From a virus, in IMG/VR virus record IMGVR_UViG_3300000976_000012, positions 1 to 64,000 of that record: DNA of 64,000 nucleotides; one strand, 5' to 3'. The notes beneath the pieces were generated by a model, which searched no databases, was not told the origin of the DNA, and saw only the letters and a list, made by a program, of their open reading frames with translations. Positions within the stretch are counted from its first letter, which is position 1. Each line of letters begins with the position of its first letter. Below are positions 1,366-59,272 of this stretch, in pieces. Both the position numbers and the translations under genes were made by a program.

Positions 1366-1379
1366 TGCAACGGGTTGCA
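1366..1379. repeat. 14-bp palindromic motif copy 1
   Basis: Plus strand reads TGCAACGGGTTGCA. Intergenic, 29 nt upstream of the chaperone ATG at 1337. Confidence 0.9.
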
Positions 1380-1382
1380 CGG

Positions 1383-1628
1383 TTAGTCTTTGTCAGCGTA
1401 ACGAGTTTCTATCCAGCGGCCCGCCTGCTCGTCCTTCACTCGCTCAGCCGCCGCTAGTGTCAGCTTGGTAGCGATGATCCGTGTGTTCGATATGTGGCGA
1501 TCTCGAACGAAATTCTTCTGGAGCACTATGAACACCTTCACACGATATGAAGGCTTCCCACGACTACGACCCGTGGCTCCGGATGTAGAACCACGGGTCG
1601 CGTCAAGAGTGGTTGCGTTAGTCGCCAT
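1383..1628 (-). CDS. hypothetical protein
   Basis: 81-aa ORF between the tail tube gene and the chaperone. No recognisable domain. Confidence 0.4.
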   Translation of the reverse strand: MATNATTLDATRGSTSGATGRSRGKPSYRVKVFIVLQKNFVRDRHISNTRIIATKLTLAAAERVKDEQAGRWIETRYADKD

Positions 1629-1643
1629 AAGCCCCTGTGATGA

Positions 1644-2951
1644 TCAGCAGAAAACGATGATCGTTTCATCATCTCCGTCAATACGTTTAGGCATAGCAGT
1701 CTTCTCATAAGTGAGAGTACCGTTCCGATCACCAAAGCTCTGCTCTGATGTCTGTGTTTTACCGCAGAAAAACACCGTCTGGTTGCCCGGTTCAGTACCA
1801 ATACGAGTTACGAATACTTTCGACTTAGAGTTCACGAACTCATCCCAAAACGGATGATCCGCTTCAATGGTCGCCTCTGGGTTGAACCCAATGACAGGTA
1901 AACGACTGACAATACGCGAGCCAATGTATCCTTGAGGTCCGTTAACCGAGGGACGTGCTTGCACGTCATTAGCTTGTTCATATGTGATTTGCTCAACAAC
2001 TAGATTGCGATTGCCGCCCCATGTCATGGTGGACAATTCAACCTGTGGTGGCAGGCACACCTCGCCGTAATCTACATCCGGAATGAGTTCATCACCCGGC
2101 TGTACGAAATTGGTTGTGTAATTGAAAGTGAGCTTCGCGATGTCGCCTGCGTTAGCCTCAAGACTGAAACTACCAAGGCCACGCGTACCGATAAGTTTTA
2201 CGCCGTCGCGGTTCAATTCCATACGTGCGGTCTTTTGATCTCGTGAAATAGGTACAGCCTTCACGCCAACCGGAAATACCACAAGAGACCACTTCTGGCC
2301 TAATACAAGATCGCCGGTCCATGTTGGGGTGATTGAACCGCCCTTGGCTCCAAGTGTCAACGCCGTACCGGATGTGATCGTTTCTGATGCCGGAGCTGCG
2401 ATAACGTCTCCGTTCGTACCGTCACCTTCATCTGCTTTAGAGTTCGACGTGATCGTGATTTGCGCCGCGCCGGACGCACCCGCTGTGGTCACTTCGATAA
2501 TATAAAGAACGGGCTGCAACACAGACGTAGCAGCCGGGTCAGATGCCCAACTGATAGTCGGGTCAGTCTTCGCATTGTCTGCGTCGGCAATTACAGGGGA
2601 ATGACAATCAGGCCCTGCGGTCATAGGTAGCAAATCATAACCACATGCTTGGATCATATCAGCGATGATTGGGCGATCTACAAGTAAACCGGACTGTTGC
2701 TTCCCGTTCCCTCGCACCTCAGTGGTGACTTGGAAACCAGAAACAATCCGACCTACAATGCTCTCAAAAGGTGACAGGTCGTTCGATACGTAATCACGCT
2801 CAAGAACTTGTGGGTCCGTTGTATATTCAGGGGATGAAACTTCGATAGCATCGACGTTTGGGTCCAAAACCGGATCAACGCCGGGTGTCTCTTCGATGCC
2901 AAAAAGAAAAGTTGCTCGTCTTGTGAGAAGACCGCCAAGCTCTCCGCTCAT
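1644..2951 (-). CDS. major tail (tube) protein, putative
   Basis: 435 aa with an AAGGAG SD before ATG 2951. Sits after the neck genes and before the chaperone and TMP. No sheath/tube pair is present. Confidence 0.55.
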   Translation of the reverse strand: MSGELGGLLTRRATFLFGIEETPGVDPVLDPNVDAIEVSSPEYTTDPQVLERDYVSNDLSPFESIVGRIVSGFQVTTEVRGNGKQQSGLLVDRPIIADMIQACGYDLLPMTAGPDCHSPVIADADNAKTDPTISWASDPAATSVLQPVLYIIEVTTAGASGAAQITITSNSKADEGDGTNGDVIAAPASETITSGTALTLGAKGGSITPTWTGDLVLGQKWSLVVFPVGVKAVPISRDQKTARMELNRDGVKLIGTRGLGSFSLEANAGDIAKLTFNYTTNFVQPGDELIPDVDYGEVCLPPQVELSTMTWGGNRNLVVEQITYEQANDVQARPSVNGPQGYIGSRIVSRLPVIGFNPEATIEADHPFWDEFVNSKSKVFVTRIGTEPGNQTVFFCGKTQTSEQSFGDRNGTLTYEKTAMPKRIDGDDETIIVFC

Positions 2952-3052
2952 GATAGTTACTCCTTGCTATTGCTAATGCTATTGCTTGTTAGGGACTTCC
3001 CGTAGCAGTGGTTGTTTTACGTGTTCATCTGATCCGCGTCAAGATAATGTGA

Positions 3053-3553
3053 TCAACATTGCGTAGTTGGGTCATTGACGCGAGTGCGGTACTTGATTTC
3101 GACAATGAGCACACCCGCCACCACACCGGGATTGGATGATGTTATATCTAGTTCGCTACCCCGTTCTTCAATGTTCAGAGATAGCTTCTGGCCTGTGTTT
3201 TCTTCAGTGCAGTAAATGTCCAACCCTATGATACGTTGCACCTCTCCAAGCACTCGATTAGCGAAGTCGGCTGCATCATCACATTCAGCCAACTTCACAT
3301 GAAATTCCATAGCCACGCTCAATCGGCGTTCGTCTCGCTGCACATCCGGGCGAACTCGCTCGCTGGTGTCGTACAAACCTATGGCGTAGCCGGACTGCTG
3401 CTGTTCTTTAGTCAGAGGTAACCGACTAACCTCATCCCACGTAAATGATGCACCGTTGACATTGGCTACCTCGCACTCAAACCGTTTCTTCAAATGCTTC
3501 ATTATGCGGTTGCGGATTGGGTCGGGTCCGACTGGTTCGGGGGTCAAGCTCAT
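3053..3553 (-). CDS. tail completion/terminator-like protein, putative
   Basis: 166 aa. Start moved to ATG 3553 (ATGA overlap with the upstream gene). Call is by position in the neck module only. Confidence 0.4.
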   Translation of the reverse strand: MSLTPEPVGPDPIRNRIMKHLKKRFECEVANVNGASFTWDEVSRLPLTKEQQQSGYAIGLYDTSERVRPDVQRDERRLSVAMEFHVKLAECDDAADFANRVLGEVQRIIGLDIYCTEENTGQKLSLNIEERGSELDITSSNPGVVAGVLIVEIKYRTRVNDPTTQC

Positions 3554-4200
3554 GGTAGCCACTCATCTATTATGTTGGAAATTTCCTCAAACGTATTTTT
3601 TTCAAAATAGGTCATACGTGAATTGAACGCCTCTGTCATCTTCAACCGGGGCCGGATCGTAATCTCGGGCTTTAATACGTAAAGCGGCGTCACTTCATTG
3701 GCGTTGGGTAGTTTTCTAAAAATTAGCAGATTTCCTTTTTTCGACCGTGCAACAAATGTGTTGTCCCATGCTCTCGCACGCTCCCTCAAAGGTACGCCTC
3801 GGCTATCCAAAGCAGCAGGCAGTGGGATGGTAAGGTACTGCGAACGCGTCGCCCGGATCGTGCCACCTTCTTCATGAAACGACAGCTTGGCAGCGGATAT
3901 TTTACCAACTGCAAACTCAGTCCCCCCCTGCGCCCTAACCTGTATACTTTCTTGAATAGACCGCAAACCATCACCAGATCGGACTTGCAAATTATTCCCA
4001 GACGGCCCCCCACTCCACGGAGTGCCATGCTTCTTTTTCATCTCGTCTGCAACCTGTTGCAGCGCATCCTGCATCATTGCGGGAACTTCAAGCTCAGCAT
4101 AGTCGATTGCTTCTTCGAGTTGGTCATAGATGTCCATGAACGCGTGTTGCAGCGTTGGATAGCTCATTCGATTGAGCTGGACTTCTACGATGTTAAACAT
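3550..4200 (-). CDS. neck / head-tail joining protein, putative
   Basis: 216 aa with a TAATG overlap onto the connector gene. Call is by position only. Confidence 0.4.
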   Translation of the reverse strand: MFNIVEVQLNRMSYPTLQHAFMDIYDQLEEAIDYAELEVPAMMQDALQQVADEMKKKHGTPWSGGPSGNNLQVRSGDGLRSIQESIQVRAQGGTEFAVGKISAAKLSFHEEGGTIRATRSQYLTIPLPAALDSRGVPLRERARAWDNTFVARSKKGNLLIFRKLPNANEVTPLYVLKPEITIRPRLKMTEAFNSRMTYFEKNTFEEISNIIDEWLP

Positions 4201-8466: not shown

Positions 8467-8541
8467 GTTCGTGTCCAAAAACATCGTTCAAGTAGATTGC
8501 GATGTTTTTATGCGATGACCATGTGCACGTCAAGGCTCCAG

Positions 8542-8555
8542 TGCAACGGGTTGCA
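8542..8555. repeat. 14-bp palindromic motif copy 2
   Basis: TGCAACGGGTTGCA, 2 nt after the stop of 8557..9516 and upstream of TTGACG-17-TAAAAA and the protease gene. Confidence 0.9.
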
Positions 8556-9516: not shown

Positions 9517-11321
9517 TACGCAGCCTTATCGGTAGTAGTGTCGTCGTTCTCTGGATTAGAGCGAGTGCGTTTTGGTGGGTCATATCGTTTCTTGGATGCA
9601 AGCTCTAACACGTCGCGCAAATTACCTATTGCATGTCTCACTTGTCTAGGACCACCGTCTGTTTTGGTCGCGTCATCGTCATCATCTGCAACGGGTTGCA
9701 CGAGATTACTCTCGTTATTGCCAAGTTCGCCGCTTGCGTCATCGATCTCTTTTATGATGTCGTCAAAGCCCATGAGCTTACCTTGTGTGGCGAGTGCCTG
9801 CACAATCATAAATGGGTAGTTGCCCCATTCTTCTTCGACTAAAGACACGTCCAAACCGAATTGCTCGTTGGCCAAACCAATAGCTACGTTCGGCGTCATA
9901 GCGCCCACACTGTTGAAGGCAGACACAGCCTCAATGACCTCTTTCGGATCGGATATGCGAGGTGGGTTAGAGCGCACTTCCCAATACTCCACACCATACG
10001 GTGCTAACAAATGACGATTAACAAAATCATCTATCATTTCGCGCTCAGGACCAAACACCTGACCCTCTGCCACCTCATATGAAGTCTGCGCACTGGCACG
10101 TGTATAATCCTCCGAGTGGCCTGTGAAGATTGGCGGCAAACGGAAACTCGAACGCACCTTCTTGATCTGTGCGGCGTCGTATTCGAGAAACTGACCATCA
10201 TCGATCTTATCACCGGCTAGAGGCTTCAACTCAACTTTAGGAGCCGGAATAACTCCGTCGCGTGCAGCGGCGTTCTCATCACCTTCGACCTCTAGCAACA
10301 GCACGCGGTTATGGCTTGCGCGCCCACGGGCAGCGGTCACGTGCTCCTCAATTTGATCAATTGCATCACCCGTAAGAATGCCACCCGATACCAAAACAGC
10401 CATTGCCGGGATGGCGTTCTCTTTAAAATAATCAAGGTTGGTCAACTCGGCCTGACGCGAACCTTGGATCGCGACTAAGTTATTAAACCAGCGGGGAAGG
10501 CCGTAGAATTGGCCGGGGTAGTATTGCTTGAACATCACGATCTCTGTCGCAGTATCTTCAAACGCTAGGTTCGGTGTAACCTTGCCGTCCTTCGGATTGA
10601 CAAAACGGGGGTCACCAAATTCCTTAAACCAGATTTTCTTCGTTCCCAGTATTTGGATAAAACGCCGGAACCGACGTCGTACCATCGCATCAACACGCTT
10701 GCCAAAGCGCTCTTCAGACACATCCACTTCAACTTCATCCATATCAACAGACGTCGCCCGAACTGTATGTGCAGGGATATGGGATATGAAAATTGGCATA
10801 CCTTCTTTGGTGCGCCCGATCTCCAAATACCCAAAGCCAAGCGTCTCCATATCCCACCGAACGCGTTTGCGTATCTCGGTCATAGATTGCTCTGGATGAA
10901 GTGTTTCTAAGAAGCTCTCAATATGCTCCTTTTCCTTTTTGGATGCATCGGATTGGTCTCCGCCATCCGGTCCAGTGTATTCCATGCGCTGGCCGTGACC
11001 TTCGATATTGATCACCATTGTTTCTATGCACTGACGCAAAATCGAGTTGTCATTTGGCATACGCAACAGCGCAGCTAAGTTGACCGGAGGAGGCAAGATA
11101 CGCAGTTCCGATGTGCCGGACGCCGTGTACAGGCTCTGTTCTTTGAACGGGTCTTCTAACTGATTAGAGAAAGTGGCTCCGCGCTGAATATCTTGTAGTA
11201 CCTCGTCATCATCAACCTCTGTACCACGTCCTTTGAGAGAACCTAGATTGACGGCGCGACGAGTACGACGCTTGGGCGAATTGCCTACATTTCTCTCTAT
11301 CTGGTTTGAACGCTTTATCAT
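9516..11321 (-). CDS. portal protein
   Basis: 601 aa with a portal-like core, immediately upstream of the minor head protein. The C-terminal tail carries VQPVA (palindrome) and YDPPKRTR. Confidence 0.75.
   Translation of the reverse strand: MIKRSNQIERNVGNSPKRRTRRAVNLGSLKGRGTEVDDDEVLQDIQRGATFSNQLEDPFKEQSLYTASGTSELRILPPPVNLAALLRMPNDNSILRQCIETMVINIEGHGQRMEYTGPDGGDQSDASKKEKEHIESFLETLHPEQSMTEIRKRVRWDMETLGFGYLEIGRTKEGMPIFISHIPAHTVRATSVDMDEVEVDVSEERFGKRVDAMVRRRFRRFIQILGTKKIWFKEFGDPRFVNPKDGKVTPNLAFEDTATEIVMFKQYYPGQFYGLPRWFNNLVAIQGSRQAELTNLDYFKENAIPAMAVLVSGGILTGDAIDQIEEHVTAARGRASHNRVLLLEVEGDENAAARDGVIPAPKVELKPLAGDKIDDGQFLEYDAAQIKKVRSSFRLPPIFTGHSEDYTRASAQTSYEVAEGQVFGPEREMIDDFVNRHLLAPYGVEYWEVRSNPPRISDPKEVIEAVSAFNSVGAMTPNVAIGLANEQFGLDVSLVEEEWGNYPFMIVQALATQGKLMGFDDIIKEIDDASGELGNNESNLVQPVADDDDDATKTDGGPRQVRHAIGNLRDVLELASKKRYDPPKRTRSNPENDDTTTDKAA
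9687..9700. repeat. 14-bp palindromic motif copy 3
   Basis: Lies inside the portal 3' end and is translated V-Q-P-V-A. Confidence 0.9.
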
Positions 11322-11370: not shown

Positions 11371-13005
11371 CTACAGATCAAGCAATGTGACTGCACGCGT
11401 TTCACGAGGCACTGATGCAACGGGTTGCACGTCTTCACGTCCTTCTTCGAGAGGCGACACAAAATCAAAATCAGTAGGACCCCATGCTTCAGTAAGTTTA
11501 CAAAGCTCTCCGCACACATCACCAATACCTAGGCGTTCAATTGCGCTTTCTGCGCGATATTCATAGCGAGGCCACGCCATTATCCTGCGGGGTGATCCTG
11601 TTGCTTCGATTTTTCTTAATTGGTAGCGGCTCCACACGTTTCGTATCAATACAGGTACTTCCGGGTAATGCAGCGTTTTCAGGTCCGGTGACATGTCGAT
11701 CTGACTGGTCAGGTATTGGAGCCGGTTAAGTGCGTGCGATATTGCAGATGCCATCGTACCGTAACTATTGATTGCGCCTCTGAGTTTAGGGTTCAGCCCC
11801 CGTTGTGGTTCTAAATTCATATGCTCTACACAGTCACTGTCGGACACATAGATAGGGAAAATGAACGCCAGTGGCACTGACAAACAATCCATTGAGTTTC
11901 GGACATGTACTACTTCTTTGATTATGAAACGCCACTCGCTGAGAACTCTATGGATTAAAATCTCCGGTACATCTTTGCCGTCATCGATATTAGGTATACG
12001 GAATTTACGCTTACCTGTTTTGATCAACCTGACCATGGGATGTCGGTTACGCTGAGCATCACCACTGGATCGCGTGTCTCGGCACATACTGGGAAATCTG
12101 ACATGCCCTATGTCTGTCAACTGCATCTGTCTTCGGCTTTTGTCTTTATCGGAATGTATCGTTCCTCGCGCATACTTAGTCACAGTGGCCGATTTGCCTT
12201 TGACCGCCCTAATAGCGTGGTTACGTGAAGGCGCTTTGTGGTTATCCATCCATGATCTATCAGGACAGAACGTGTGTTTGGTGGATTGCATAATGCGCCG
12301 CCACTGGGCACCGACTGTTTTTCCACTAAAACGCCCCGCCGTCCTTAACTTCACACTGGGTATCTTCGAGCGCTTGCTGTCGTAGAGGTGCACAAAGTTG
12401 TATATATCCCGAGGTCCGTTACTTCCCGGTGCACTGGAGTGACGACACATTTTTATCATACGATCTCTAGTACTTTGCATATCACACCGGATGTGGATGA
12501 TATTGGAAAACACCACATTGCTCGTGCATATTTTCTGTAATACCTTTTCCATGTGCTCGGCTGTGTTCTCGATCTCGACAGGCACATTCATAAAATGCAT
12601 CAAGCTGATCAGATTAGACAACAGCGCATCGGTGCTGACAGTCAACAGTTTCCCCATGGGGTGATCGTACAAGGTAAAAAATCCGGGCAGGTCTTTCGTT
12701 ACTCTGTCCGCTTCGTCTTCGTGTATCACAATACCTTCGATTTCATTGCCACCCTCAAGAACGGTTTTGTTGATAGCCACCACATGGACATCTAACAGCG
12801 TGACAGCCGACAGTGATTCTTCGAACTTATGCGGTCTAGCATCTTCATCCGCCATCTCTGATGAGCTGACAAAGGTAACACGGGGGTCTGCAATCTCACG
12901 CTGTTCGTTCTCTACATAACTATCTCCAGCCGTGTCTCGATCCTCGTAAGGTTCTTGCCAGCGGCCAGCTTTGATATATAGTGAATGCAGAATGATGTGA
13001 GCCAT
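11371..13005 (-). CDS. 544-aa ORFan, basic and Cys/His/Met/Arg-rich
   Basis: Only long open frame in this 1.6 kb. Has its own TTGACATAAAAT promoter and GTCGAAAGGGA leader, with ATG 13005 downstream of them. No confident domain; AGRFSGKT is a Walker-A-like string in mid-protein. Confidence 0.6.
   Translation of the reverse strand: MAHIILHSLYIKAGRWQEPYEDRDTAGDSYVENEQREIADPRVTFVSSSEMADEDARPHKFEESLSAVTLLDVHVVAINKTVLEGGNEIEGIVIHEDEADRVTKDLPGFFTLYDHPMGKLLTVSTDALLSNLISLMHFMNVPVEIENTAEHMEKVLQKICTSNVVFSNIIHIRCDMQSTRDRMIKMCRHSSAPGSNGPRDIYNFVHLYDSKRSKIPSVKLRTAGRFSGKTVGAQWRRIMQSTKHTFCPDRSWMDNHKAPSRNHAIRAVKGKSATVTKYARGTIHSDKDKSRRQMQLTDIGHVRFPSMCRDTRSSGDAQRNRHPMVRLIKTGKRKFRIPNIDDGKDVPEILIHRVLSEWRFIIKEVVHVRNSMDCLSVPLAFIFPIYVSDSDCVEHMNLEPQRGLNPKLRGAINSYGTMASAISHALNRLQYLTSQIDMSPDLKTLHYPEVPVLIRNVWSRYQLRKIEATGSPRRIMAWPRYEYRAESAIERLGIGDVCGELCKLTEAWGPTDFDFVSPLEEGREDVQPVASVPRETRAVTLLDL
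11416..11429. repeat. 14-bp palindromic motif copy 4
   Basis: Lies inside the ORFan 3' end (V-Q-P-V-A), 95 nt upstream of the portal ATG. Confidence 0.9.
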
Positions 13006-14922: not shown

Positions 14923-14936
14923 TGCAACCCGTTGCA
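14923..14936. repeat. 14-bp palindromic motif copy 5
   Basis: TGCAACCCGTTGCA, 4 nt after the stop of 14940..15374 and 7 nt upstream of the -35. Confidence 0.9.
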
Positions 14937-21248: not shown

Positions 21249-21866
21249 CTATAGGCTGACGCCCCTCCCTCCGATTGACCCTGATATATTGCAACGGGTT
21301 GCAGAGATCAGTGATGATGTGTTGCGTCTGAACGGGCGCGGCCCCGGCGTGAATTTATCCACGTCTTCGTCTTCCTTTAACACGTCAAAGACAAAACGCC
21401 ACTCCGAGGTGCCGTTGTCATGATGCCAGAGCACATTCCAATTACCCCCGCTGTAGAGATACAAGTACTCTTGTTCGTATTGAATTAGGTCTGTCACATC
21501 GGGATGAGTGTCTATTTCTAGCGGCTCTGGATTATTGGGGTCGTTGCGGTCTCGATGATAAAACAAACACATTTGATTACGAGGGTCGGCTTTTATCTTA
21601 TCCCAATCTATACTTGATACACCTGTCTTTGGATCAGTGTATTGCATATCATCACCATGACGCCACTCAAAATCGTGCTTTTCTCCTATTAGCGGATTTA
21701 ACACACTCATATGTCCGTGACTGATAAGTAATCCAGCCATGCCGGGGCTATTGTAATGTTCTATAAGCATCTTCCCGTTCCACGATGGATAGCCGTCAGA
21801 GTGGCAATAGATCGAATTGATCTTACCATTCGGGTATTGATATGCGATTGTGCTCCTAGTAGCCAT
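21249..21866 (-). CDS. hypothetical protein
   Basis: 205 aa. Cassette leader CGAAAGGGAAATC precedes the ATG. Confidence 0.65.
   Translation of the reverse strand: MATRSTIAYQYPNGKINSIYCHSDGYPSWNGKMLIEHYNSPGMAGLLISHGHMSVLNPLIGEKHDFEWRHGDDMQYTDPKTGVSSIDWDKIKADPRNQMCLFYHRDRNDPNNPEPLEIDTHPDVTDLIQYEQEYLYLYSGGNWNVLWHHDNGTSEWRFVFDVLKEDEDVDKFTPGPRPFRRNTSSLISATRCNISGSIGGRGVSL
21290..21303. repeat. 14-bp palindromic motif copy 6
   Basis: Lies inside the 3' end of 21249..21866 (frame A-T-R-C), 47 nt upstream of the next ATG. Confidence 0.9.
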
Positions 21867-23717: not shown

Positions 23718-24513
23718 CTAAATTGGTTGCCCTTCGTTTTTTGGTGATCTCCAGATCAGTGCCTTTAGGCTTCAAAGATTTGGGTGCAACGGGTTGCACG
23801 GTCTCTCCGTATGAAGCACCAAAATCCTGCTGCATCGCATTACTGAAGTCACGCACCGACGCCCCGGATTGTGATGCAGCACGAGATAACTGCTCCATAG
23901 CTTGAGCCTGTGCTTGTGACGCGCTCGTTACTCCGTTCATTTGGGCACTGCGACGGTCACCTCCTAGTATTCGCTGCTCCATGTCTCGACCAAACGCTTC
24001 AGCTAGCCGCTGAGTTATTGTTTCACGCATGTTGGAAAACCTATCGTCTTCGATATTTTCCAACCTGACCTCTGATATAGGGGAGCGTATTGCTCTACCT
24101 ATTTGCTGTATATTCGGGCCGGGACTAAACACCCTCCTTGTTGGGCTTTGCCCACCTTCAAATGTAATGAACCCTGTTCGATCCGGGGTGGACGCCGGGT
24201 CCATTCCCATAATGGCCTCACCCTGTGGTCGTACAAGACGATCAGAAAACAACATACCGGGTTCCGATTGCGCGAATGCGTCAAACAACTCTCTGTTCAA
24301 TAAACCACCTGTTGCAAATAGATTAGAGCGCGATGGGCGCTCTGCCTCTCTGAGCCGCAAGACAGCTATCGCTTCTGGGTCTCCGGGAAATGCACGGCGC
24401 AACTGGCGACTGGTCATGTTCTCGTAGTCGGGCACCATCTCGCCCCATTCATTCCGCATGTGGGCATGGTTGTTACTAAAGTGCCCTGATCGATGATCCT
24501 TGTTTCTAATCAT
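23710..24513 (-). CDS. hypothetical protein
   Basis: 267 aa with an ATGA overlap. The C-terminal region carries VQPVA (palindrome) and KKRRATNLDD. Confidence 0.6.
   Translation of the reverse strand: MIRNKDHRSGHFSNNHAHMRNEWGEMVPDYENMTSRQLRRAFPGDPEAIAVLRLREAERPSRSNLFATGGLLNRELFDAFAQSEPGMLFSDRLVRPQGEAIMGMDPASTPDRTGFITFEGGQSPTRRVFSPGPNIQQIGRAIRSPISEVRLENIEDDRFSNMRETITQRLAEAFGRDMEQRILGGDRRSAQMNGVTSASQAQAQAMEQLSRAASQSGASVRDFSNAMQQDFGASYGETVQPVAPKSLKPKGTDLEITKKRRATNLDD
23785..23798. repeat. 14-bp palindromic motif copy 7
   Basis: Lies inside the 3' end of 23710..24513 (V-Q-P-V-A), 68 nt upstream of the ParB-fold gene ATG. Confidence 0.9.
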
Positions 24514-27084: not shown

Positions 27085-27345
27085 TTATTCCTTAACCGTT
27101 GACCCACCATTATAACCGGGTGGTATGCTGGGGACAGCAGGTGGTGCTCCTTCAAGCGCCGTTATTTTCTGCTCTAAAAGTGCAACCCGTTGCAGCAAAT
27201 CAGTATTAGCATTCTCTAACCTCTTATTGGTTTGGTTCATAGCATCTATGTTTTTAGACGTTGCTACTAACCATGCTAGCGTCACACCCGGCTCGCCTGA
27301 GCCGTGCTCTTCTAACACCTTCTCCAATAAGTTTTCGTCAGTCAT
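27085..27345 (-). CDS. small coiled-coil protein
   Basis: 86 aa with a GGGAGGG SD. Contains palindrome copy 8, read L-Q-R-V-A. Confidence 0.55.
   Translation of the reverse strand: MTDENLLEKVLEEHGSGEPGVTLAWLVATSKNIDAMNQTNKRLENANTDLLQRVALLEQKITALEGAPPAVPSIPPGYNGGSTVKE
27181..27194. repeat. 14-bp palindromic motif copy 8
   Basis: TGCAACCCGTTGCA inside 27085..27345, 110 nt upstream of the next ATG. Confidence 0.9.
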
Positions 27346-31915: not shown

Positions 31916-31929
31916 TGCAACCCGTTGCA
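31916..31929. repeat. 14-bp palindromic motif copy 9
   Basis: Intergenic, 6 nt after the HNH stop and 23 nt upstream of the fibre ATG at 31893. Confidence 0.9.
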
Positions 31930-35021: not shown

Positions 35022-35035
35022 TGCAACGGGTTGCA
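35022..35035. repeat. 14-bp palindromic motif copy 10
   Basis: Intergenic, 5 nt after the stop at 35040 and 9 nt upstream of the -35. Confidence 0.9.
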
Positions 35036-37800: not shown

Positions 37801-37829
37801 ACAATAGCGCAACCCACATTTTATGTCAA
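37801..37829 (-). promoter_or_regulatory. cassette promoter
   Basis: TTGACATAAAAT with a -10 TATTGT at 17 nt. The palindrome lies 7 nt upstream. Confidence 0.6.
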
Positions 37830-37836: not shown

Positions 37837-37850
37837 TGCAACCCGTTGCA
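37837..37850. repeat. 14-bp palindromic motif copy 11
   Basis: TGCAACCCGTTGCA, intergenic, 7 nt upstream of the -35. Confidence 0.9.
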
Positions 37851-38587: not shown

Positions 38588-38601
38588 TGCAACGGGTTGC
38601 A
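38588..38601. repeat. 14-bp palindromic motif copy 12
   Basis: Intergenic, 7 nt after the stop at 38608 and 8 nt upstream of the -35. Confidence 0.9.
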
Positions 38602-40495: not shown

Positions 40496-40758
40496 CAAAA
40501 GTATTCTTTGTCTTCTAGACACACATGTGGATCAATGCGCTGTCCGCACTTACAGATATACTCCAGTGCAACGGGTTGCAGCGAATGGTCAGCTTCCAAT
40601 GCAACTTCTCCGAGCACGATGTGCTTCCCATTACCTGCGAAGTAATAGTCAGCAGCCCACTGTTCTTCACCCGTTCCAGCATATGCGTCGCGGATGCGTT
40701 GCTCTACTTCCTGCCATGCAAGCCGGGAAACCTTCAGGATCGTGTAGGTGCAGCTCAT
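40495..40758 (-). CDS. hypothetical protein
   Basis: 87 aa. Contains palindrome copy 13, read L-Q-P-V-A. Confidence 0.5.
   Translation of the reverse strand: MSCTYTILKVSRLAWQEVEQRIRDAYAGTGEEQWAADYYFAGNGKHIVLGEVALEADHSLQPVALEYICKCGQRIDPHVCLEDKEYF
40567..40580. repeat. 14-bp palindromic motif copy 13
   Basis: Lies inside 40495..40758, about 45-72 nt upstream of the next start. Confidence 0.9.
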
Positions 40759-42884: not shown

Positions 42885-43219
42885 ACGGCCTCTCCTGTTG
42901 CAACGCGTTGCACCACGCCTTCGGCATAGCAGAAACGCTGTTCACCTCCTCGAATAAAGTAGGAAAATTCTCCATCTCCTTGAGCGACATATGTTAAATC
43001 CTGTTGGATTTGGGTTATCTCCGCCTTTGAAAATATACTCATCTGGTTGTCATGCTTGTCGTGGTGACAGCCGACTTTCAGAGAACCGTCGTTCATGGAG
43101 TGTACTCTAAAATACACACCTAATAACTTGTCGTGTACGTCGTACCCCTCCATCCAAATAGATGCCCCCTTACGCAAGCGCTTACCTGTCTTCGTATCTC
43201 TGAAAGTTAGTTTGGTCAT
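42881..43219 (-). CDS. hypothetical protein
   Basis: 112 aa. A variant perfect palindrome TGCAACGCGTTGCA at the 3' end encodes VQRVA. Confidence 0.55.
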   Translation of the reverse strand: MTKLTFRDTKTGKRLRKGASIWMEGYDVHDKLLGVYFRVHSMNDGSLKVGCHHDKHDNQMSIFSKAEITQIQQDLTYVAQGDGEFSYFIRGGEQRFCYAEGVVQRVATGEAV

Positions 43220-44498: not shown

Positions 44499-44512
44499 TG
44501 CAACGGGTTGCA
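44499..44512. repeat. 14-bp palindromic motif copy 14
   Basis: Intergenic, 11 nt after the stop at 44523 and 3 nt upstream of a further TTGACA-17-GTAAAT. Confidence 0.9.
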
Positions 44513-45338: not shown

Positions 45339-45367
45339 GTGCAAGTATATCTTAGATTTGTTGTCAA
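45339..45367 (-). promoter_or_regulatory. second-class promoter candidate (TTGACAACAAATC)
   Basis: The 15-nt CGTTGACAACAAATC is shared with 53998..54012. The -35 overlaps the terL stop. The -10 is poor. Confidence 0.35.
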
Positions 45368-48139: not shown

Positions 48140-48745
48140 CTAACTGGCAGTGTCAGGTATCTTCGGCCCTCGGTCTTTCGGACCCCATGCGCGACTGTAC
48201 TTGTGCTCGTCAATCTTCATCTTGGTGAAGACGCTCTCCTGAAGCAATAACTCAATCTCAGCGCGGTCGGCACCAAGTTCTTTCATCAACTGTTCGATGG
48301 GAATATCATGGTCCTCTACCAATGAAGTCACAAGGTCGTGCATTCTAGCGGAAACATGAGTACCCTTGGCGCGGTTGATCCTAACGGTCAACATCTTGCG
48401 CTCAGCTTCATCAATATCCATGACAGCGCAAGGCACCTTTGTGCCAAACGCTTCTTGAATTTCCGTATCTGTCTTGGTCAATGTGCAACGGTGAAAGCCA
48501 TCGATAATCGTGTACTGATCTGGTTGATCAGGATGAGGCACCACGAGTACAGGCTGTATCCAACCCTGCTTCAGCATAGACAGCTTCAGCAACCTAAACT
48601 CAGGCCCAATAACGACGTTGGGATTATAGTCATTGGCGTTCAATTGATCGACATCAATCCACTGAATACCGTCGATAGGGTGCTTCATATCATCCGTCCT
48701 AATCTGCTGTGCAACCCGTTGCATGGGTCCACTGCTGCTGAACAC
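48140..48745 (-). CDS. ParB/IbrB-like protein
   Basis: NANDYNPNVV...GWIQPVLVV...YTIIDGFHRC matches the ParB N-domain. Candidate ATG 48724 overlaps palindrome copy 15. Confidence 0.7.
   Translation of the reverse strand: MFSSSGPMQRVAQQIRTDDMKHPIDGIQWIDVDQLNANDYNPNVVIGPEFRLLKLSMLKQGWIQPVLVVPHPDQPDQYTIIDGFHRCTLTKTDTEIQEAFGTKVPCAVMDIDEAERKMLTVRINRAKGTHVSARMHDLVTSLVEDHDIPIEQLMKELGADRAEIELLLQESVFTKMKIDEHKYSRAWGPKDRGPKIPDTAS
48710..48723. repeat. 14-bp palindromic motif copy 15
   Basis: TGCAACCCGTTGCA overlaps the candidate start ATG 48724 of the ParB-like gene (M-Q-R-V-A). Confidence 0.9.
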
Positions 48746-48814
48746 TTCTGTCCGTGTAGCTCATATTTTATGGTCAGGTCAACCTCTATGCCACACTCGC
48801 CCTGTCTTTATTGC

Positions 48815-49012
48815 CTACACAAGAGATCGACTTACACCATAATCATTCGCAACCACTCTATCTACCCTACCATCTACTTTGATAGTATCGGCTTGTTTCT
48901 GTGTTAAAATAGAATTTCCATTCTTCTCGCCTATGTTACGACGTCCCCGTTTTCCTTGATCATCCATATTGTCTTGGTGTGTTCCGGACAGAAGGTGCAT
49001 GGGATTACAACA
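48815..49012 (-). pseudogene. truncated HNH_3 homing-endonuclease remnant
   Basis: The frame reads CCNPMHLLSGTHQDNMDDQGKRGRRNIGEKNGNSILTQKQ...DYGVSRSLV. The HNH N-terminal half is missing: the frame is cut by the TGA at 49013..49015, which is also the stop of the dioxygenase gene. Confidence 0.6.
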
Positions 49013-52564: not shown

Positions 52565-52628
52565 GGTCTGCTGCTTCCTATGCTGCTGACTTACTGTTCG
52601 CTACTTACTATCTCGAAGACCTTTTCAT

Positions 52629-52642
52629 TGCAACCCGTTGCA
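52629..52642. repeat. 14-bp palindromic motif copy 16
   Basis: Lies in the leader of the ParB operon, 15 nt downstream of TGACATAAAAT and 65 nt upstream of ATG 52564. Confidence 0.9.
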
Positions 52643-52669
52643 CCTGCAAAAGCGTATATTTTATGTCAC
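52641..52669 (-). promoter_or_regulatory. cassette promoter variant (GTGACATAAAAT)
   Basis: The -35-like GTGACA overlaps the stop of 52666..53265. There is no good -10 at 17 nt. The palindrome sits downstream, not upstream. Confidence 0.4.
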
Positions 52670-53265
52670 GCTCTCTTGCGCTTTGGTGGGTTAATGAATC
52701 GAGAAGGTAGGATGCCCTTTGGCTTACTGACTTCAGGAAAGCCCCAAAAGAAACGGATAGGGTCTCGTAGATCACGCGACAGAAATAAGTCTCGGCTGAT
52801 GCCTGCTTCTGTAGCGAACGCTTCCCAAAACTCTCCATCTTTAGGCAACCCTACCGGATAAACCTCATCATATGATCGATACATTTTGACAGGCGACATC
52901 ACCAACATAGTCCACCAAGCACCGTGTTTGTAATTCCGTGCCACAAAGTCAAACCACGAACGCGGGTCCACAAAACGGGCATGAAGCAAGCGATGTGCTA
53001 GTTTGGACACGGGCAACCATTCTGTAGACTTTTCAATGGAATAGTCTTCTAGATGGGTGAACATATAACCAGCACCCTTCGGATCGTCAGGTCGAGTGTA
53101 CCCCGTAATGGAGCACACTGTTGGGTTGTTACCTCGCTGGTAGCGCTCCACTCGTTGGGGTTGGTTCACCCCATTTCGCGCTTGGGGACTGAAGCCGTTG
53201 TACCAGCGGTCCTTACTCACCTTACGCCCTGCGGCGATGTAATCGTTAAGCCCCTGCATCTTCAT
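52666..53265 (-). CDS. hypothetical protein, C-terminal INPPKRKRA
   Basis: 199 aa. Start overlaps the methyltransferase stop. No recognised domain. Confidence 0.6.
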   Translation of the reverse strand: MKMQGLNDYIAAGRKVSKDRWYNGFSPQARNGVNQPQRVERYQRGNNPTVCSITGYTRPDDPKGAGYMFTHLEDYSIEKSTEWLPVSKLAHRLLHARFVDPRSWFDFVARNYKHGAWWTMLVMSPVKMYRSYDEVYPVGLPKDGEFWEAFATEAGISRDLFLSRDLRDPIRFFWGFPEVSKPKGILPSRFINPPKRKRA

Positions 53266-53948
53266 TATGCGCGCTCCAAAATGACAGCGGCGTCTTCAGA
53301 CTTCTTGGAGCGGAACGTCTCTTTCCAGAGCGGGCCGATAGCTTCGATCTCAATGTCTGTGTTATAAATCGGGTGTGCCAGCCGGTTCCTATACGGTCCG
53401 TAGAGACGGCCTTCGAGCACTATGTACTCAATACCTGCATCGGCGGCGGCTTTGCCAAAAGCATGTCCAGCAGGTAGCCAAATATCGCGACCTGTCTCCA
53501 TGTGAACAGCGGCTTTGCCAAACGTAGTGGCAAAAAGCTCGGACAAAACACGACGACAAAGGAACGTATTGATCCCTTGGCTTACCCAGTCACGACACAT
53601 AACCGCAAATTCTTCGGTACGTACATCGAGCTTAGCTGTTTGGAGAGTAACCCCATCTGTGCGGACAAATTGGTTATAGGCGTCCACCGCCTTCTGGTTC
53701 ATTTCCAACCCAATGACAGGCCCCCACCCCATTTTCCGGGCACGGATCGATAACATCCCGTGACATGCGCCGAAATCGATAGCACCTCCGCGCTTGTCTT
53801 TAGGTACTTGCTCCATGGCAATACCCATTTGCTTATGGATGTTGGGGAGTTTTCCTTCATCCAGATATTTTTGGATGTGTTTGAAATGTCCGTAGATTGC
53901 GCCACCGTCTAATTTAGTGGGGTTCGGGTTTGTGTTTGCAGTTGTCAT
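53265..53948 (-). CDS. class I SAM-dependent methyltransferase
   Basis: Motif I AIDFGACHG and an acidic beta-2 end VIGLEMN. No DPPY/NPPY or C5 PC/ENV motifs, so the substrate is unclear. Confidence 0.65.
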   Translation of the reverse strand: MTTANTNPNPTKLDGGAIYGHFKHIQKYLDEGKLPNIHKQMGIAMEQVPKDKRGGAIDFGACHGMLSIRARKMGWGPVIGLEMNQKAVDAYNQFVRTDGVTLQTAKLDVRTEEFAVMCRDWVSQGINTFLCRRVLSELFATTFGKAAVHMETGRDIWLPAGHAFGKAAADAGIEYIVLEGRLYGPYRNRLAHPIYNTDIEIEAIGPLWKETFRSKKSEDAAVILERA

Positions 53949-54019: not shown

Positions 54020-54514
54020 CTACGTTTCCGCGTACAATTCTCGGTCATTCGCTGTCTTTACTGTGTGGCAGGGTGGGCATCGAGTTGCCATGTTTTTCAG
54101 TGTCCATAGCTCATGCGGGTTACCTTGTTTTGGAGCCTCGGATAACGGGATAATGTGATCTAATTCCCACCGCCCTAAAGCTAACGGCTTCAACCCCGGT
54201 TTGCCATAATCAACCGGGTTCAATATCTCTTCTATAATGCGACGAACTTGATCACTAGATTGACCACCCGGTGAACAATCCATACCACAATCAGCGCAGA
54301 TACCCCGATCCCTTACGAATACAAATCGACGGGCAACCTGCGGATTATTCATAATAGACCATTTAAGAGAGCACTCTGAATGCCAGAACGCTCCCTTATT
54401 GATCTTACCTTGCCGGTCGATGATACGATCACCACAAAACTTGCAGTGACCACGCTTTGGCTTGAGCATAAAGCGTGGCCGAGGCGGTATTCGGTGTCGC
54501 CCCTTCCTACGCAT
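54020..54514 (-). CDS. HNH endonuclease
   Basis: Start set at ATG 54514 (TAATG overlap with the nrdJ stop). CKFCG...HSEC...ELDHIIPLSE...CPPCHTVKT. Confidence 0.75.
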   Translation of the reverse strand: MRRKGRHRIPPRPRFMLKPKRGHCKFCGDRIIDRQGKINKGAFWHSECSLKWSIMNNPQVARRFVFVRDRGICADCGMDCSPGGQSSDQVRRIIEEILNPVDYGKPGLKPLALGRWELDHIIPLSEAPKQGNPHELWTLKNMATRCPPCHTVKTANDRELYAET

Positions 54515-57135: not shown

Positions 57136-57149
57136 TGCAACCCGTTGCA
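57136..57149. repeat. 14-bp palindromic motif copy 17
   Basis: Intergenic, 73 nt upstream of the nrdJ ATG and next to a long inverted repeat. Confidence 0.9.
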
Positions 57150-57213
57150 CCATACAGAAAGGCCCGATGCCATTACAGCACCGAGCCACCCTGACAAGGA
57201 TTGCAGGATTTTA

Positions 57214-58575
57214 TCAGGCGGCCTTTTCTTCCGCCTCCTCTTCGCTGGCTTCTTCTGTCTCGCCAACCGGGGTAGTAGTGATCTTCACACCAAAACGTGC
57301 TTCTGCCAGTTCCACGGTCTGTTCGAGTGTCATGTCAGAGCCATCCGAGTGACCACGCCAATCGTTCACAATATATGCAAACGCCTTGCCCATATCTTCC
57401 TCGCCGATTGCCGCCATGGCTTCCGTGATACCTTCATTGACGCCAATAGCATCTTCTTCCGCTACACTGAAGCTGAACTTAGTCATCTTCACGGTGTCAC
57501 CACCGCGAGTTGCGACTTCGTAGTTCTTCTTGATGTGCTCAGTAAGTTCATCGCGAGTAGTAGTCTTTGCCATTTCCAGCAAAGCGTCCTTGTCGCGCTT
57601 GAGATCGTCGATGGCGATCCGAGCAATTTCCTTAGCTTTCGACCAACCGATGTCAGCCAGTTCCGTTTCGCCGATATTGGCCAGCGAACACGCACGATAG
57701 ACTGAGATCAGATAGCGCGCCTTGCGATATTCCAGATCGAGCTCACCATCGATATAGTCTTTGAAAGCGTTCTTGCCGTCATAGCCCATCTGCTTATGGA
57801 TGCCGGTCTGGTCAACGTGGTCCAAAACACCACCAAGGGTGAAGTAAGTTCGCTCAACCTGCTCAATCAAATGACGGGCAGCGTCCGTGGCATTGTCCGC
57901 ATCGGACAGTGCTTTGGTGACTGATGCCATCGGAGCAATCTGCTCTGGCTCGGACTTCTTGACTTCCGTCTTTTTGTTCTTCGCTTCCGCTTTTGGTTTT
58001 TCTTCTTCAACAGGGGCCGACCTGGCAGCTTCGATAGCTTCAATGCGGTCTTTCTTGGTGACTGCATTCGAGATGTCCGCACCTTCGTCTTTGGCAATGG
58101 CCGCAATTTCCTTGACGGTCATCCGTTCATTCAGGGCGGGGAGGTCTTCAGAGGCGCTCTCGCTATCCCTGACCGCTTCACTGTCACCTGCTTCACTGTC
58201 ACCTGCTTCAGCTTCGCTGGAGTTATCTTCAGCTTCTTCGATGTCGTCACCGCCTTCAGCATCACCTGTTTCCAGTTCGGCTGCTTCGATTTCTGAGAGG
58301 AATACCCGCTCAGCATGTGACGGTTCACCACTGTCTTTATCCAGCAATTCGTTACCGTCTTCATCAACGCCTACAACTACAATGTCGCCTTCGCCTTCAT
58401 CGAAACGAATGATCTTCACAGGCATGTCTTTTTCGAGGATTTCTTCCTCTCCTTCGACTGCGGATGAGTATCCGTTAAACAAGGCGAACGCACCAGTTGT
58501 GATGCCTACTGCCTTAGCTTGAGCTTTGAGGCTCTGCTTGTCTTCGTCTGCCATTTTCTTCATCTCCTGTGGCAT
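57214..58575 (-). CDS. acidic HeH/SAP-motif protein
   Basis: 453 aa with a very acidic centre, HeH-like MTVKEIAAIAKDEGADIS, and a C-terminal helical domain with weak ParB-HTH flavour. Confidence 0.55.
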   Translation of the reverse strand: MPQEMKKMADEDKQSLKAQAKAVGITTGAFALFNGYSSAVEGEEEILEKDMPVKIIRFDEGEGDIVVVGVDEDGNELLDKDSGEPSHAERVFLSEIEAAELETGDAEGGDDIEEAEDNSSEAEAGDSEAGDSEAVRDSESASEDLPALNERMTVKEIAAIAKDEGADISNAVTKKDRIEAIEAARSAPVEEEKPKAEAKNKKTEVKKSEPEQIAPMASVTKALSDADNATDAARHLIEQVERTYFTLGGVLDHVDQTGIHKQMGYDGKNAFKDYIDGELDLEYRKARYLISVYRACSLANIGETELADIGWSKAKEIARIAIDDLKRDKDALLEMAKTTTRDELTEHIKKNYEVATRGGDTVKMTKFSFSVAEEDAIGVNEGITEAMAAIGEEDMGKAFAYIVNDWRGHSDGSDMTLEQTVELAEARFGVKITTTPVGETEEASEEEAEEKAA

Positions 58576-58623
58576 TTACATGGATTGCAAAACCACCACA
58601 AAAATTGCTGCGGTGGTGGTTAC

Positions 58624-58652
58624 ACAATACGGCGCGACAGATTTTATGTCAA
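58624..58652 (-). promoter_or_regulatory. cassette promoter
   Basis: TTGACATAAAAT with a -10 TATTGT at 17 nt. The palindrome lies 8 nt upstream. 38 bp are identical to 38566..38603. Confidence 0.6.
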
Positions 58653-59272
58653 GAGAATAGTGCAACGGGTTGCACCGGCTCTAGTCCGTGTCTCTTACGT
58701 AAATTGAGGATAAGCCCCTTCTGTTCGTCATCGATTTCTATATGCTCGTCTGTCCAAACGCAAGCGGCGATTAACGCCAACACTGCTGCATCAGCTTCGT
58801 CGTCCTGCGGAATGTCCAACCCCCATCGTTCCTTCAAAGCCGCGATGACTGCGGGCTTAGGTGAATTACCCTTACCTGTGGCAAACTGCTTCAGTTCGTT
58901 TGGCGTCACCTCTATATAAGAGACGCCCATATCATGCAGTAATAAACGCGCTACACCTCCCCATTCCCCTATATTAGCGAGACGACCTCTCGATCCCATG
59001 CTGTACCCTTCGATAGCTAGCAAGGTGGGTAAAAGCCCACTGAAATTGTTTTCTAACTGATCCCGCAAACTAGCGAGCCGATGTGCTCCTCGTTTCTTTG
59101 TTTGCGGTTTGATGCACCCGTGCCTCATCTGCCCATATCGGATTGTGGCATCTCCCGTGCTGGTTAGAGATAAATCCAGTCCACTAAATTTCTCAGTGAA
59201 CGAAGGGAAACCTCCTATCGGTGCACCGTATAAAACTGGGTTACCTCGCTTGCGTTTAGGTGGATCAATCAT
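58649..59272 (-). CDS. RuvC-like Holliday junction resolvase
   Basis: GLDLSLTSTGDA, AIEGYSMG and DEADAAVLAL fit the RuvC acidic residues. Start ATG 59272 (ATGA overlap) gives the N-terminus MIDPPKRKRGNP. Confidence 0.6.
   Translation of the reverse strand: MIDPPKRKRGNPVLYGAPIGGFPSFTEKFSGLDLSLTSTGDATIRYGQMRHGCIKPQTKKRGAHRLASLRDQLENNFSGLLPTLLAIEGYSMGSRGRLANIGEWGGVARLLLHDMGVSYIEVTPNELKQFATGKGNSPKPAVIAALKERWGLDIPQDDEADAAVLALIAACVWTDEHIEIDDEQKGLILNLRKRHGLEPVQPVALFS
58661..58674. repeat. 14-bp palindromic motif copy 18
   Basis: Lies inside the last codons of the RuvC-like gene (P-V-Q-P-V-A-L-F-S-stop), 8 nt upstream of the -35. Confidence 0.9.

Follow-up and report, generated by a model that had tools for sequence, protein, structure and literature searches.

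The stretch of DNA analysed here (hereafter the window) comprises the 64 kb from position 1 to 64,000 of the viral record IMGVR_UViG_3300000976_000012, part of a 93.4-kb contig; its plausible genes all lie on the minus strand, and dispersed among them, at intervals of about 3 kb, is a 14-bp palindrome, TGCAACSSGTTGCA (TGCAAC-SS-GTTGCA). This sequence has 19 matches in the window against an expectation of zero (in 100 dinucleotide-preserving shuffles, both the mean and the maximum were 0), and when any centre dinucleotide is allowed (TGCAAC-NN-GTTGCA, again with 0 expected) the number of sites rises to 21 through the addition of those at 60151 and 4048, which both read TGCAACCTGTTGCA. Three more sites occur in the 8.5 kb of the same contig that follow the end of the window. 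Dispersed dyad arrays are also present in four complete relatives, with 59 sites in Rhizobium phage vB_RleS_L338C, 16 in Aeromonas phage HJ05, 33 in Agrobacterium phage JP1 and 21 in Rhodobacter phage RcTiptonus. The array is real and strongly non-random, and it is conserved over a large phage family in co-evolving versions.

When all 6-bp arms with spacers of 0-6 bp were compared, TGCAAC-N2-GTTGCA was the sole repeated palindrome in the window. The arms are invariant inside each genome and the centre dinucleotide varies, with both orientations of the prevailing centre occurring in the window (CC 11 times, GG 7 times). Its flanks carry little information beyond a weak preference for G at -1; in HJ05 and JP1 the palindrome is extended to T...A or TT...AA. 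One-mismatch variants concentrate at position 3/12 of the arms, which is the position that differs among lineages. A first-pass annotation of this DNA had listed 18 exact copies, and TGCAAC-GG/CC-GTTGCA stands at every one of its coordinates, and its description of the one-mismatch variants (13314, 17975, 37360 and 56782) is likewise correct; its list missed the site at 4048, and the difference between its 18 coordinates and our 19 matches is explained by 42899, where the centre is GC.

The sites favour gene boundaries. With gene starts chosen by ribosome-binding-site support, 11 of the 21 are fully intergenic (probability for a random 14-mer, 0.054; P = 2e-9), and for 19 of the 21 the next start follows within 175 nt (random, 0.27; P = 2e-9). 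Of the 11 intergenic sites (coordinates throughout without strand), seven begin 1-10 nt past the stop codon of the upstream gene: 1366..1379 (3 nt past the stop, after the cluster of tail-tube genes, with the ATG at 1337 coming 28 nt later), 8542..8555 (1 nt, upstream of the protease gene), 14923..14936 (3 nt), 31916..31929 (5 nt past the stop of an HNH gene and 22 nt before the gene for a 903-aa fibre-like protein), 35022..35035 (4 nt), 38588..38601 (6 nt) and 44499..44512 (10 nt). Elsewhere, the site at 48710..48723 lies downstream of a promoter-like element and 21 nt upstream of an IbrB-like ParB gene (ATG 48688), with a site in the same place ahead of its L338C counterpart, gp090; that at 52629..52642, also intergenic, is followed after 64 nt by the ATG (52564) of the gene that opens the ParB cluster; and that at 57136..57149 falls between an EndoVII-like gene and nrdJ, with sites at the same position in L338C and JP1. 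Several sites stand 11-30 nt ahead of a start codon.

The other 10 of the 21 sites are inside open reading frames (ORFs), mostly at their 3' ends. One lies in the 601-aa portal ORF (9687..9700, in 9516-11321, 171 nt before the stop) and one in a 550-aa ORF (11416..11429, at the 3' end, encoding V-Q-P-V-A, 94 nt upstream of the portal start); a tblastn search with this 550-aa ORF against the phage collection returned no match. Six fall in the last 9-110 nt of upstream ORFs: 21290..21303 (ORF 21249-21866, next start 46 nt on), 23785..23798 (ORF 23710-24513, next start 67 nt on), 27181..27194 (small ORF 27085-27345, next start 109 nt on), 40567..40580 (small ORF 40495-40758), 42899..42912 (the site with the GC centre, in the final 15 nt of ORF 42881-43219, with the ATG of 42884 following 14 nt on) and 58661..58674 (a RuvC-like ORF). 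Two are in 5' parts, and both have the CT/AG centre: 4048..4061 is 139 nt from the start of ORF 3550-4200 (216 aa), and 60151..60164 is 52 nt into a Cas4-like exonuclease ORF (start 60216). In the relatives some 45-70% of sites are within called ORFs (59% in L338C), although part of this is an artefact of longest-ORF calls that over-extend 5' ends. The preference for gene boundaries is therefore real as a statistical tendency, but the earlier wording, by which the palindrome was always just upstream of a gene start, was overstated given these 10 sites and the many mid-gene sites in relatives; the accompanying assertion that none lies in the interior of a long gene does not strictly hold, given the portal and 550-aa ORFs.

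Past the end of the window, in stretch L285, the palindrome at 8516-8529 nearly fills the 18-nt gap between the stop of an SSB-like gene (8511) and the called start of a helicase (8530). Since no room is left for a ribosome-binding site, either the start of the helicase has been placed wrongly or the site coincides with signals for translation.

A subset of the sites stands at a fixed distance from promoters. Reading the minus strand, a near-consensus sigma-70 promoter begins 7-9 nt after five window sites: those at 35022 (9 nt; TTGACA at 35012, a 17-nt spacer and TATTGT at 34984), 37837..37850 (7 nt; TTGACA at 37829, 17 nt, TATTGT at 37801), 38588 (8 nt; TTGACA at 38579, 17 nt, TATTGA) and 58661 (8 nt; TTGACA at 58652, 17 nt, TATTGT at 58624, the promoter of the EndoVII-like gene), together with 14923, which precedes a promoter-like TTGACA (14915), 17 nt and TACAAG at 7 nt. 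Weaker matches follow 8542, which is 8 nt upstream of TTGACG (8533-8528), and 44499, where TTGACA is 3 nt downstream and a second TTGACATAAAAT promoter occurs about 110 nt further on. In the promoter-linked sites this geometry places the centre of the palindrome near -50/-51. Under a strict promoter scan, 16 of the 59 sites in L338C are promoter-linked, compared with a background of 0.65%, and among the 29 copies of the conserved promoter of that phage (TTGACAaaggatcggttc..gTTAGATT) the palindrome is upstream of 15 and at 8-9 nt in 11. Generic scans for promoters and terminators gave no overall enrichment over shuffles; the informative promoters are the specific conserved ones. Several sites have an intrinsic-terminator-like hairpin, complete with T-run, on one side and the next promoter on the other, a gap that is transcribed less than any other part of the genome.

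The window has a second repeat, consisting of about 16 promoter-plus-leader cassettes on the minus strand, each with the layout cTCTTGACATAAAAT, about 17 nt, a -10 element, GTCGAAAGGGAA (the ribosome-binding site) and an ATG; positions of their ATAAAAT include 13050, 19424, 21910, 22675, 25662, 35007, 36689, 37824, 38574, 43554 and 58647. These cassettes resemble near-identical early promoters that share a 5' leader, and the L338C version of them is TTGACAaaggatcggttc..gTTAGATT. Because the palindrome is upstream of only 4 of the approximately 16 cassettes, the palindrome and the promoter are separate elements that have been combined at a fixed distance.

This combination is best seen at the junction between the RuvC and EndoVII-like genes, where a palindrome and a sigma-70-like promoter occur in 5 of 5 complete genomes, with three different palindromes and, in 4 of the 5, a gap of 8-11 nt. 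The junction reads TGCAACCCGTTGCA, 8 nt, TTGACA-17-TATTGT in the window; TGCAACTTGTTGCA, 8 nt, TTGACA-17-TAGATT in L338C; TGCAAACGTTTGCA, 11 nt, TTGCCA-17-TATATT in JP1; TGCAATCGATTGCA, 9 nt, TTGACA-17-TAACTT in RcTiptonus; and TGCAACCGGTTGCA, 28 nt, TGGACA-17-TATTAT in HJ05.

The proteins of the window group with a family of siphoviruses of 79-110 kb. Its portal is 50% identical to that of L338C, 44% to that of HJ05, 38% to that of JP1 and 36% to those of the Rhodobacter RcF-cluster phages, and its major capsid protein is 64% identical to the L338C counterpart; a profile of the major capsid protein recovered 379 relatives in IMG/VR. No nucleotide-level relative of the window was found in the phage collection, and a scan of IMG/VR for the exact 14-mer led to many-copy contigs that are nucleotide relatives of the window at 65-74%.

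Across this family the arms differ by lineage. L338C has 47 copies of TGCAAC-N2-GTTGCA with any centre and 12 with a 1-nt spacer; the 16 copies in HJ05 are mostly extended to TTTGCAAC-YG-GTTGCAAA; JP1 carries 33 copies of TGCAAA-N2-TTTGCA, 23 of them with a CG centre, and none with TGCAAC; and RcTiptonus has 21 copies of TGCAAT-N2-ATTGCA, 19 with a CG centre. Uncultured relatives, sampled at loci around capsid or RecA genes, have the arms TGAACC, TGAAAC, TGAAAT, TGCAAT, TGCAAG, TGCAGG, TGCACA, TGACCA and TATAAC, with a few showing other geometries, and the form TG-N4-N2-N4-CA fits almost all of these versions. Complete IMG/VR contigs exemplify several types, for instance 3300037780_000016 (TGAACC), 2936046547_000001 (TGCAGG) and 3300022555_000027 (TGAAAC). 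Phages of Rhizobium and Aeromonas share TGCAAC, whereas those of Rhizobium and Agrobacterium differ. Because the type of motif does not follow the host, the simplest reading is that its reader is encoded by the phage and co-evolves with the sites.

Arrays with other geometries appear in more distant, RecA-anchored relatives (IMGVR_UViG_3300014804_000005, or L224, together with L226, L218 and L207), which contain TTGCAA-N3-TTGCAA seven times, TGACCG-N1-CGGTCA four times and TTTGCA-N5-TGCAAA five times. Dispersed palindrome arrays may thus reach beyond the family, and the length of the spacer may evolve too.

Although the arms change, many positions are retained. Over eight loci from relatives whose structural proteins are 35-60% identical, a site is found upstream of the portal gene in 8 of 8 (in the window, 11416), upstream of the protease gene in 8 of 8 (8542), after the tail-tube gene in 7 of 8 (1366) and upstream of the g14838 homologue in 6 of 8. 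The site within the g4200 homologue (4048 in the window, where it encodes A-L-Q-Q-V-A) keeps the same codon offset in 5 of 8 loci, and in five lineages the codons of this intragenic site, A-L-Q-(Q/L)-V-A, are identical and the flanking codons differ synonymously, so that selection must be on the nucleotide sequence itself.

We propose that these 14-mers probably constitute an operator array for a phage-encoded, sequence-specific, dimeric DNA-binding protein that co-evolves with its sites. A DNA-protein reading is favoured because the arms are invariant within a genome and variable among lineages, because the centre varies, because sites are placed between terminators and promoters, and because a subset maintains a fixed distance to the -35 element; once the genomes had been compared, the first-pass proposal of a site for a sequence-specific dimeric protein, rather than an RNA hairpin or a component of a single promoter class, proved the best supported. 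Binding by a protein, its encoding by the phage, its dimeric state and its effect on transcription are what we infer from these patterns in the DNA. A role in transcription is supported by the geometry at the promoter-proximal sites, and the remaining sites may serve insulation or genome architecture.

Under this proposal a single dimer would occupy each site, with each subunit reading one 6-bp arm, TG outermost, over a loose 2-bp centre, and the joint evolution of protein and sites would give each lineage its own arm sequence while many positions are retained. At the subset of operators 7-9 nt upstream of a -35 element, the bound dimer could influence RNA polymerase or protect the promoter against read-through from upstream. 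Sites elsewhere (after stop codons, before ribosome-binding sites or within ORFs) would most likely separate transcription units, with the protein as roadblock or insulator, or offer the same protein points of architectural anchorage.

Among possible binders, the proteins shared by the window, L338C, HJ05 and JP1 comprise structural, replication/recombination and ParB-fold proteins, an EndoVII-like protein of 446 aa, and a trio of AAA, DUF1257 and DUF2997 proteins. (In L338C this trio is encoded by gp050, gp052 and gp053, at L117 40500-43819, the classic-clade AAA ATPase coming first and the DUF1257 and DUF2997 proteins after it; it is present in every complete genome of the family and lies outside the window.) The best candidate is a 168-aa protein encoded on the minus strand at 62120-62626, with a predicted winged helix-turn-helix (HTH) of the MerR/excisionase type at about residues 76-125 and long C-terminal helices. 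Its homologues are located between the helicase and RecA genes in L338C (gp067), HJ05 (gp82) and RcTiptonus (gp76) and downstream of the EndoVII-like gene instead in JP1 (JP1_076); they also occur in IMG/VR relatives of six motif types, and the phage collection gave no match outside the family. PHROGs assigns it as a transcriptional regulator (E = 2.8e-5), and an AlphaFold2 model (pLDDT 75.7) has the winged HTH followed by two long helices. Foldseek and profile searches returned consistent but weak matches to the MerR-type domains of CueR, CvkR, BldC, Xis, TerS and RacA, the best Foldseek E being 0.15 (none below 0.1) and the profile values E = 0.008 for BldC and E = 0.41 for RacA. At RecA-anchored loci the presence of this protein family is associated with that of the array (odds ratio 10, P = 2e-4), an association confounded by relatedness. 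Precedents for a MerR-like phage or palindrome reader are provided by RacA, a MerR-like winged-HTH protein that binds 25 dispersed 14-bp palindromes (TGACGCCGGCGTCA) and contacts their TG/CA ends specifically (PMC4914108), and by Gp36 of phage D29, a MerR-like phage gene regulator (PMC12266134). From its sequence and predicted fold we regard the 62120-62626 protein as a possible, if rather doubtful, binder of the array.

Several observations weigh against an operator array. A convincing promoter adjoins only 5 of the 21 window sites, and a strict promoter scan passes 1 site each in HJ05, JP1 and RcTiptonus. About half of the sites in relatives are in ORFs, which would be needless for a pure regulator of initiation. 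L338C has both 1-nt and 2-nt spacers, which a rigid dimer would not usually accept and a hairpin could accommodate more easily. Centre dinucleotides have preferences by lineage and, with respect to transcription, a modest strand bias (TT 11 vs AA 2 in L338C, CA 9 vs TG 0 in JP1, TG 8 vs CA 1 in HJ05) that a symmetric reader of double-stranded DNA does not predict, although coding constraint or avoidance of ATG could cause it. For the best candidate binder, a comparison of 18 homologues gave no clean match between recognition-helix region and motif type, the sequences mostly following phylogeny. Regular spacing and in-ORF sites resemble the distributions of stoperators, KorB operators and RacA ram sites, and an architectural or roadblock role should be kept open. 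Finally, any inverted repeat is also a potential hairpin, so that symmetry alone cannot decide between DNA and RNA.

This last point raises the question of an element acting in RNA, in which an intercistronic hairpin would tune the processing, stability or translation of mRNA and might be recognised by an RNA-binding protein or a nuclease. The intergenic sites that follow closely on stop codons (7 of 11) and those that shortly precede start codons would suit such an element, as would the tolerance of both centre lengths in L338C and the strand bias of the centre, and in some contexts the predicted hairpins are better than those of shuffled sequences (z about -3). However, predicted energies of -3.2 to -7.8 kcal/mol make these weak hairpins, and the form with the GG centre is no better than shuffles; within a genome there is no covariation of the stem, which means that it is the sequence and not the pairing that is conserved; and conservation is lowest in the loop, the reverse of what holds for most hairpins recognised by RNA-binding proteins. 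Moreover, the sites between terminators and promoters, at a fixed spacing upstream of -35 elements, are where little RNA is made. A search of Rfam gave no match, a T-run is generally absent, and a loose scan for intrinsic terminators flags just two or three sites. We consider an RNA-level function quite unlikely.

The distribution of sites along the genome bears on a further alternative, namely that they are centromere- or compaction-like sites, comparable to RacA-ram, ParB-parS/Noc-NBS or KorB-OB, at which a phage protein would nucleate so as to organise, anchor or condense the replicating chromosome of the phage, any effect on promoters being secondary. Spacing between sites is more regular than random in the window (coefficient of variation (CV) 0.48, P = 0.0008), in L338C (CV 0.53, P < 0.0002) and in JP1 (CV 0.55, P = 0.0004); in HJ05 regularity was not significant. 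An architectural role would accommodate the many sites that are in ORFs and remote from promoters. The 6-2-6 geometry with TG...CA ends matches that of the RacA ram sites, the candidate binder combines a MerR-like winged HTH with long helices, and ParB-fold proteins are encoded by all members of the family. Yet the conservation of positions at gene boundaries and the fixed distance to the -35 element argue for local, promoter-linked roles and not for mere density of sites. ParB CTPases carry a GERRxRA motif. The three ParB_N proteins of the window have DGFHR, EGHGR and EGHGR at the corresponding position, and apart from the IbrB-like protein they have no recognisable HTH. An array that is architectural first and regulatory second is, in our view, unlikely, though it deserves to be taken seriously.

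A broader reading, which we judge slightly less probable still, is that the family-specific MerR-like protein of 62120-62626 binds evenly spaced TG-N10-CA palindromes and thereby divides the chromosome into insulated domains, being at once an insulator or roadblock for transcription and an organiser, like RacA or KorB, of phage DNA during replication. If this were true, a protein and sites that are re-specified together would amount to a private 'address code' for each lineage, which could also limit regulatory cross-talk or recombination among co-infecting relatives, and would represent a previously uncharacterised, general layer of genome organisation in large phages that might also explain the repeats of Cluster O mycobacteriophages.

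The variation of arms among lineages also bears on whether the reader belongs to the host, the sites being operators of a LacI/PurR type (TGNAAN-CG-NTTNCA-like) that recruit or titrate a host factor, or else a host repeat of the REP kind. The JP1 site TTGCAAACGTTTGCAA shares a 12-bp core with the consensus pur box of E. coli, and CG or YR centres dominate in JP1, HJ05 and RcTiptonus. Against this, the type of motif is independent of the host; the window phage and L338C have no predominant CG centre (CC/GG in the window, any dinucleotide in L338C); and arm position 6 is invariant in each genome and differs between phages of related hosts. Unlike the sites described here, LacI/GalR operators have an obligatory central CG and are read by a LacI-type HTH with a hinge helix; neither is seen, and no ORF of the window or its relatives matches a profile of the LacI-type HTH (best E = 0.05, with a profile built for the purpose). 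In a small sample of 50 kb from pRL12, a replicon of the L338C host, there were 0 copies with at most one mismatch, compared with about 27 per 50 kb in the phage, so that the suggestion of a host REP-like origin found no support there. A host factor is in consequence the least credible of the explanations, and a phage-encoded operator-binding protein fits the lineage-specific arms.

Beside terL, at 48140-53948 on the minus strand, there is a cluster encoding three ParB_N proteins, an IbrA-like PAPS-reductase, a TauD-like dioxygenase and a methyltransferase-like protein; L338C shares its ParB and PAPS-reductase genes (gp086-090), whereas HJ05, JP1 and RcTiptonus lack the PAPS-reductase part. 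As judged from these domains, the cluster may be a DNA-modification or IbrA/IbrB-type module. Its presence in both phages, and that of the EndoVII-like 446-aa protein, universal in the family and always encoded after a site and promoter, give some basis for supposing that the palindrome is the target of a site-specific enzyme, being modified or nicked by this module or by the conserved EndoVII/HNH-like protein. But an enzyme that cut or nicked both strands of a symmetric 14-bp site would break up the genome of the phage itself, HJ05, JP1 and RcTiptonus have arrays but not the PAPS-reductase/IbrB module, and the fixed promoter geometry would be left unexplained. With nothing found in its positive support, we regard the enzyme option, which the earlier annotation had also allowed, as very improbable.

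The proteins that this annotation had put forward as binders, three small winged-helix proteins and those of the ParB fold, find little support. The winged-helix protein of 13788-14150 has orthologues in a subset of loci, and its recognition helix is unchanged between TGCAAC and TGAAAC phages; that of 17617-17829 is present in only one related phage, and that of 35636-35950 is confined to this phage. None of the three is family-wide, and each is a less likely candidate. The IbrB-like ParB protein of 48140-48688, which aligns with Noc and Spo0J through the ParB/Noc HTH region, is absent from HJ05 and has relatives at 33-56% identity in unrelated phages of Mycobacterium, Arthrobacter, Streptococcus and Flavobacterium that lack the motif, and was rejected because a lineage-specific binder would be neither so widespread nor so conserved. 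None of the other annotated HTH proteins of JP1 and RcTiptonus is common to the family, and a putative initiator encoded upstream of DnaB (the L338C gp055 family) was not detected in RcTiptonus.

The 14-mer appears in no paper of the collection searched, and the papers there that name L338C or RcTiptonus describe no repeat. By analogy, the closest described counterpart is the 17-bp repeat of the Cluster O mycobacteriophages (Corndog and relatives), TGTTCGG-N3-CCGAACA, which is present in 34 copies in about 70 kb and for which the authors predicted a dimeric binder that would not work chiefly at promoters, leaving the function of the array open (PMC4351075). Dispersed invariant palindromes are known in a few phage groups, and where no repressor is known their function is open (PMC4351075). 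Both arrays consist of tens of copies over a large siphovirus genome, in which the arms are constant and the centre varies; about one-third to one-half of them fall in ORFs, the others being intergenic, and most are away from predicted promoters; and in both cases no integrase is found, and ParB-like domain proteins and an AAA ATPase are encoded. They differ in geometry and sequence (7-3-7 and 17 bp there, 6-2-6 and 14 bp here) and are analogous, not the same element. Moreover, the Cluster O repeat is known in one tight cluster only, with hosts of an unrelated phylum, whereas the array described here can be followed through a deep family in which the arms come in more than 10 variants, site positions are syntenic and regularly spaced, and the promoter geometry is fixed.

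Cluster A mycobacteriophages have stoperators, asymmetric 13-mers that point along transcription and are bound by the immunity repressor of a temperate phage. Like the present array, those of L5, Bxb1 and D29 occur genome-wide, with roughly 2-3 kb per site, where genes end or in the short gaps between them; one phage protein binds them all and blocks transcription genome-wide, and some overlap promoters (summarised in PMC4351075 and PMC12266134). The sites here are unlike them in having symmetric arms, with asymmetry confined to the 2-bp centre and both orientations present. A repressor or integrase system was not identified, and no integrase is annotated in L338C, HJ05 or JP1; the annotation of RcTiptonus includes an 'immunity repressor'.

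In the Streptomyces phage phiC31, conserved inverted-repeat operators of 17 bp (CIRs) in the early region are bound by the c repressor. They resemble the present sites in that many intergenic copies lie near early promoters and terminators and that the products of one regulatory gene bind all of them, and differ in being 17 bp long, concentrated in the early region of a temperate actinophage and bound by a known protein, of which no homologue turned up here, no search aimed at one having been made. On plasmid RK2, twelve 13-bp palindromes (OB) spread over the replicon are read by KorB, a global regulator of the ParB family. Some OB sites are immediately upstream of a -35 element and others are remote from promoters, and the phage family always encodes ParB-fold proteins; but RK2 is a plasmid and not a phage, no GERR-type CTP motif is present in the ParB-fold proteins of the phages, and an HTH is seen in only one of them, the widespread IbrB-like protein.

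The ram sites of Bacillus subtilis are also 14-bp palindromes in which the TG/CA ends matter, with about 25 dispersed copies (PMC4914108), and RacA, of about 180 aa with a MerR-like winged HTH and C-terminal helices, is of the same size and domain order as the 62120-62626 candidate. The differences are that ram sites are chromosomal, GC-rich and clustered near the origin, that they serve sporulation through anchoring and compaction and not through control of promoters, and that the structural likeness of the phage candidate to RacA is weak (Foldseek E >= 0.15; profile E = 0.41). Arrays of this type are known from elsewhere but are poorly understood.

The family is well suited to work on such arrays: specificity varies naturally in at least 10 forms, members have been cultured on Rhizobium, Agrobacterium, Rhodobacter and Aeromonas, site positions are conserved, and one orthologous promoter retains its palindrome in every genome examined. 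Discovery of the binder would show how a phage of about 90-110 kb with its genes on one strand partitions or times its transcription, and would yield orthogonal operator-protein pairs for synthetic biology. It would also supply a simple sequence signature by which these phages could be recognised and sub-typed in metagenomes.

Some further features of these genomes emerged from the comparison. The terL gene (45364-47370) is about 34 kb from the portal gene (9516-11321), with small early-type and fibre genes between them, while in L338C, JP1 and RcTiptonus it is about 2-10 kb upstream of the portal gene, indicating a large rearrangement of module order within the family. The L338C proteins gp086 (73 aa) and gp087 (139 aa), at L118 16658-17295, align to the two halves of the 233-aa window ParB protein (51863-52564); they look like its N- and C-terminal halves, from a gene that has been split by a frameshift or mis-annotated. 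In JP1, the annotated HTH protein JP1_104 (L123 23633-24313) contains a segment, RRADVALADLAANGGSL..., that matches the conserved N-terminus of the family's major capsid protein and leads to cross-matches with capsid genes in jackhmmer, an apparent fusion or partial duplication of the N-terminal capsid region. Two HNH endonuclease genes are present in the window (54020-54514 and 31935-32378), one of them immediately following nrdJ; the annotation of L338C gives the ribonucleotide reductase as three consecutive ORFs (gp077-079), with the HNH gene gp082 three genes downstream, and this placement around nrdJ hints at homing-endonuclease activity.

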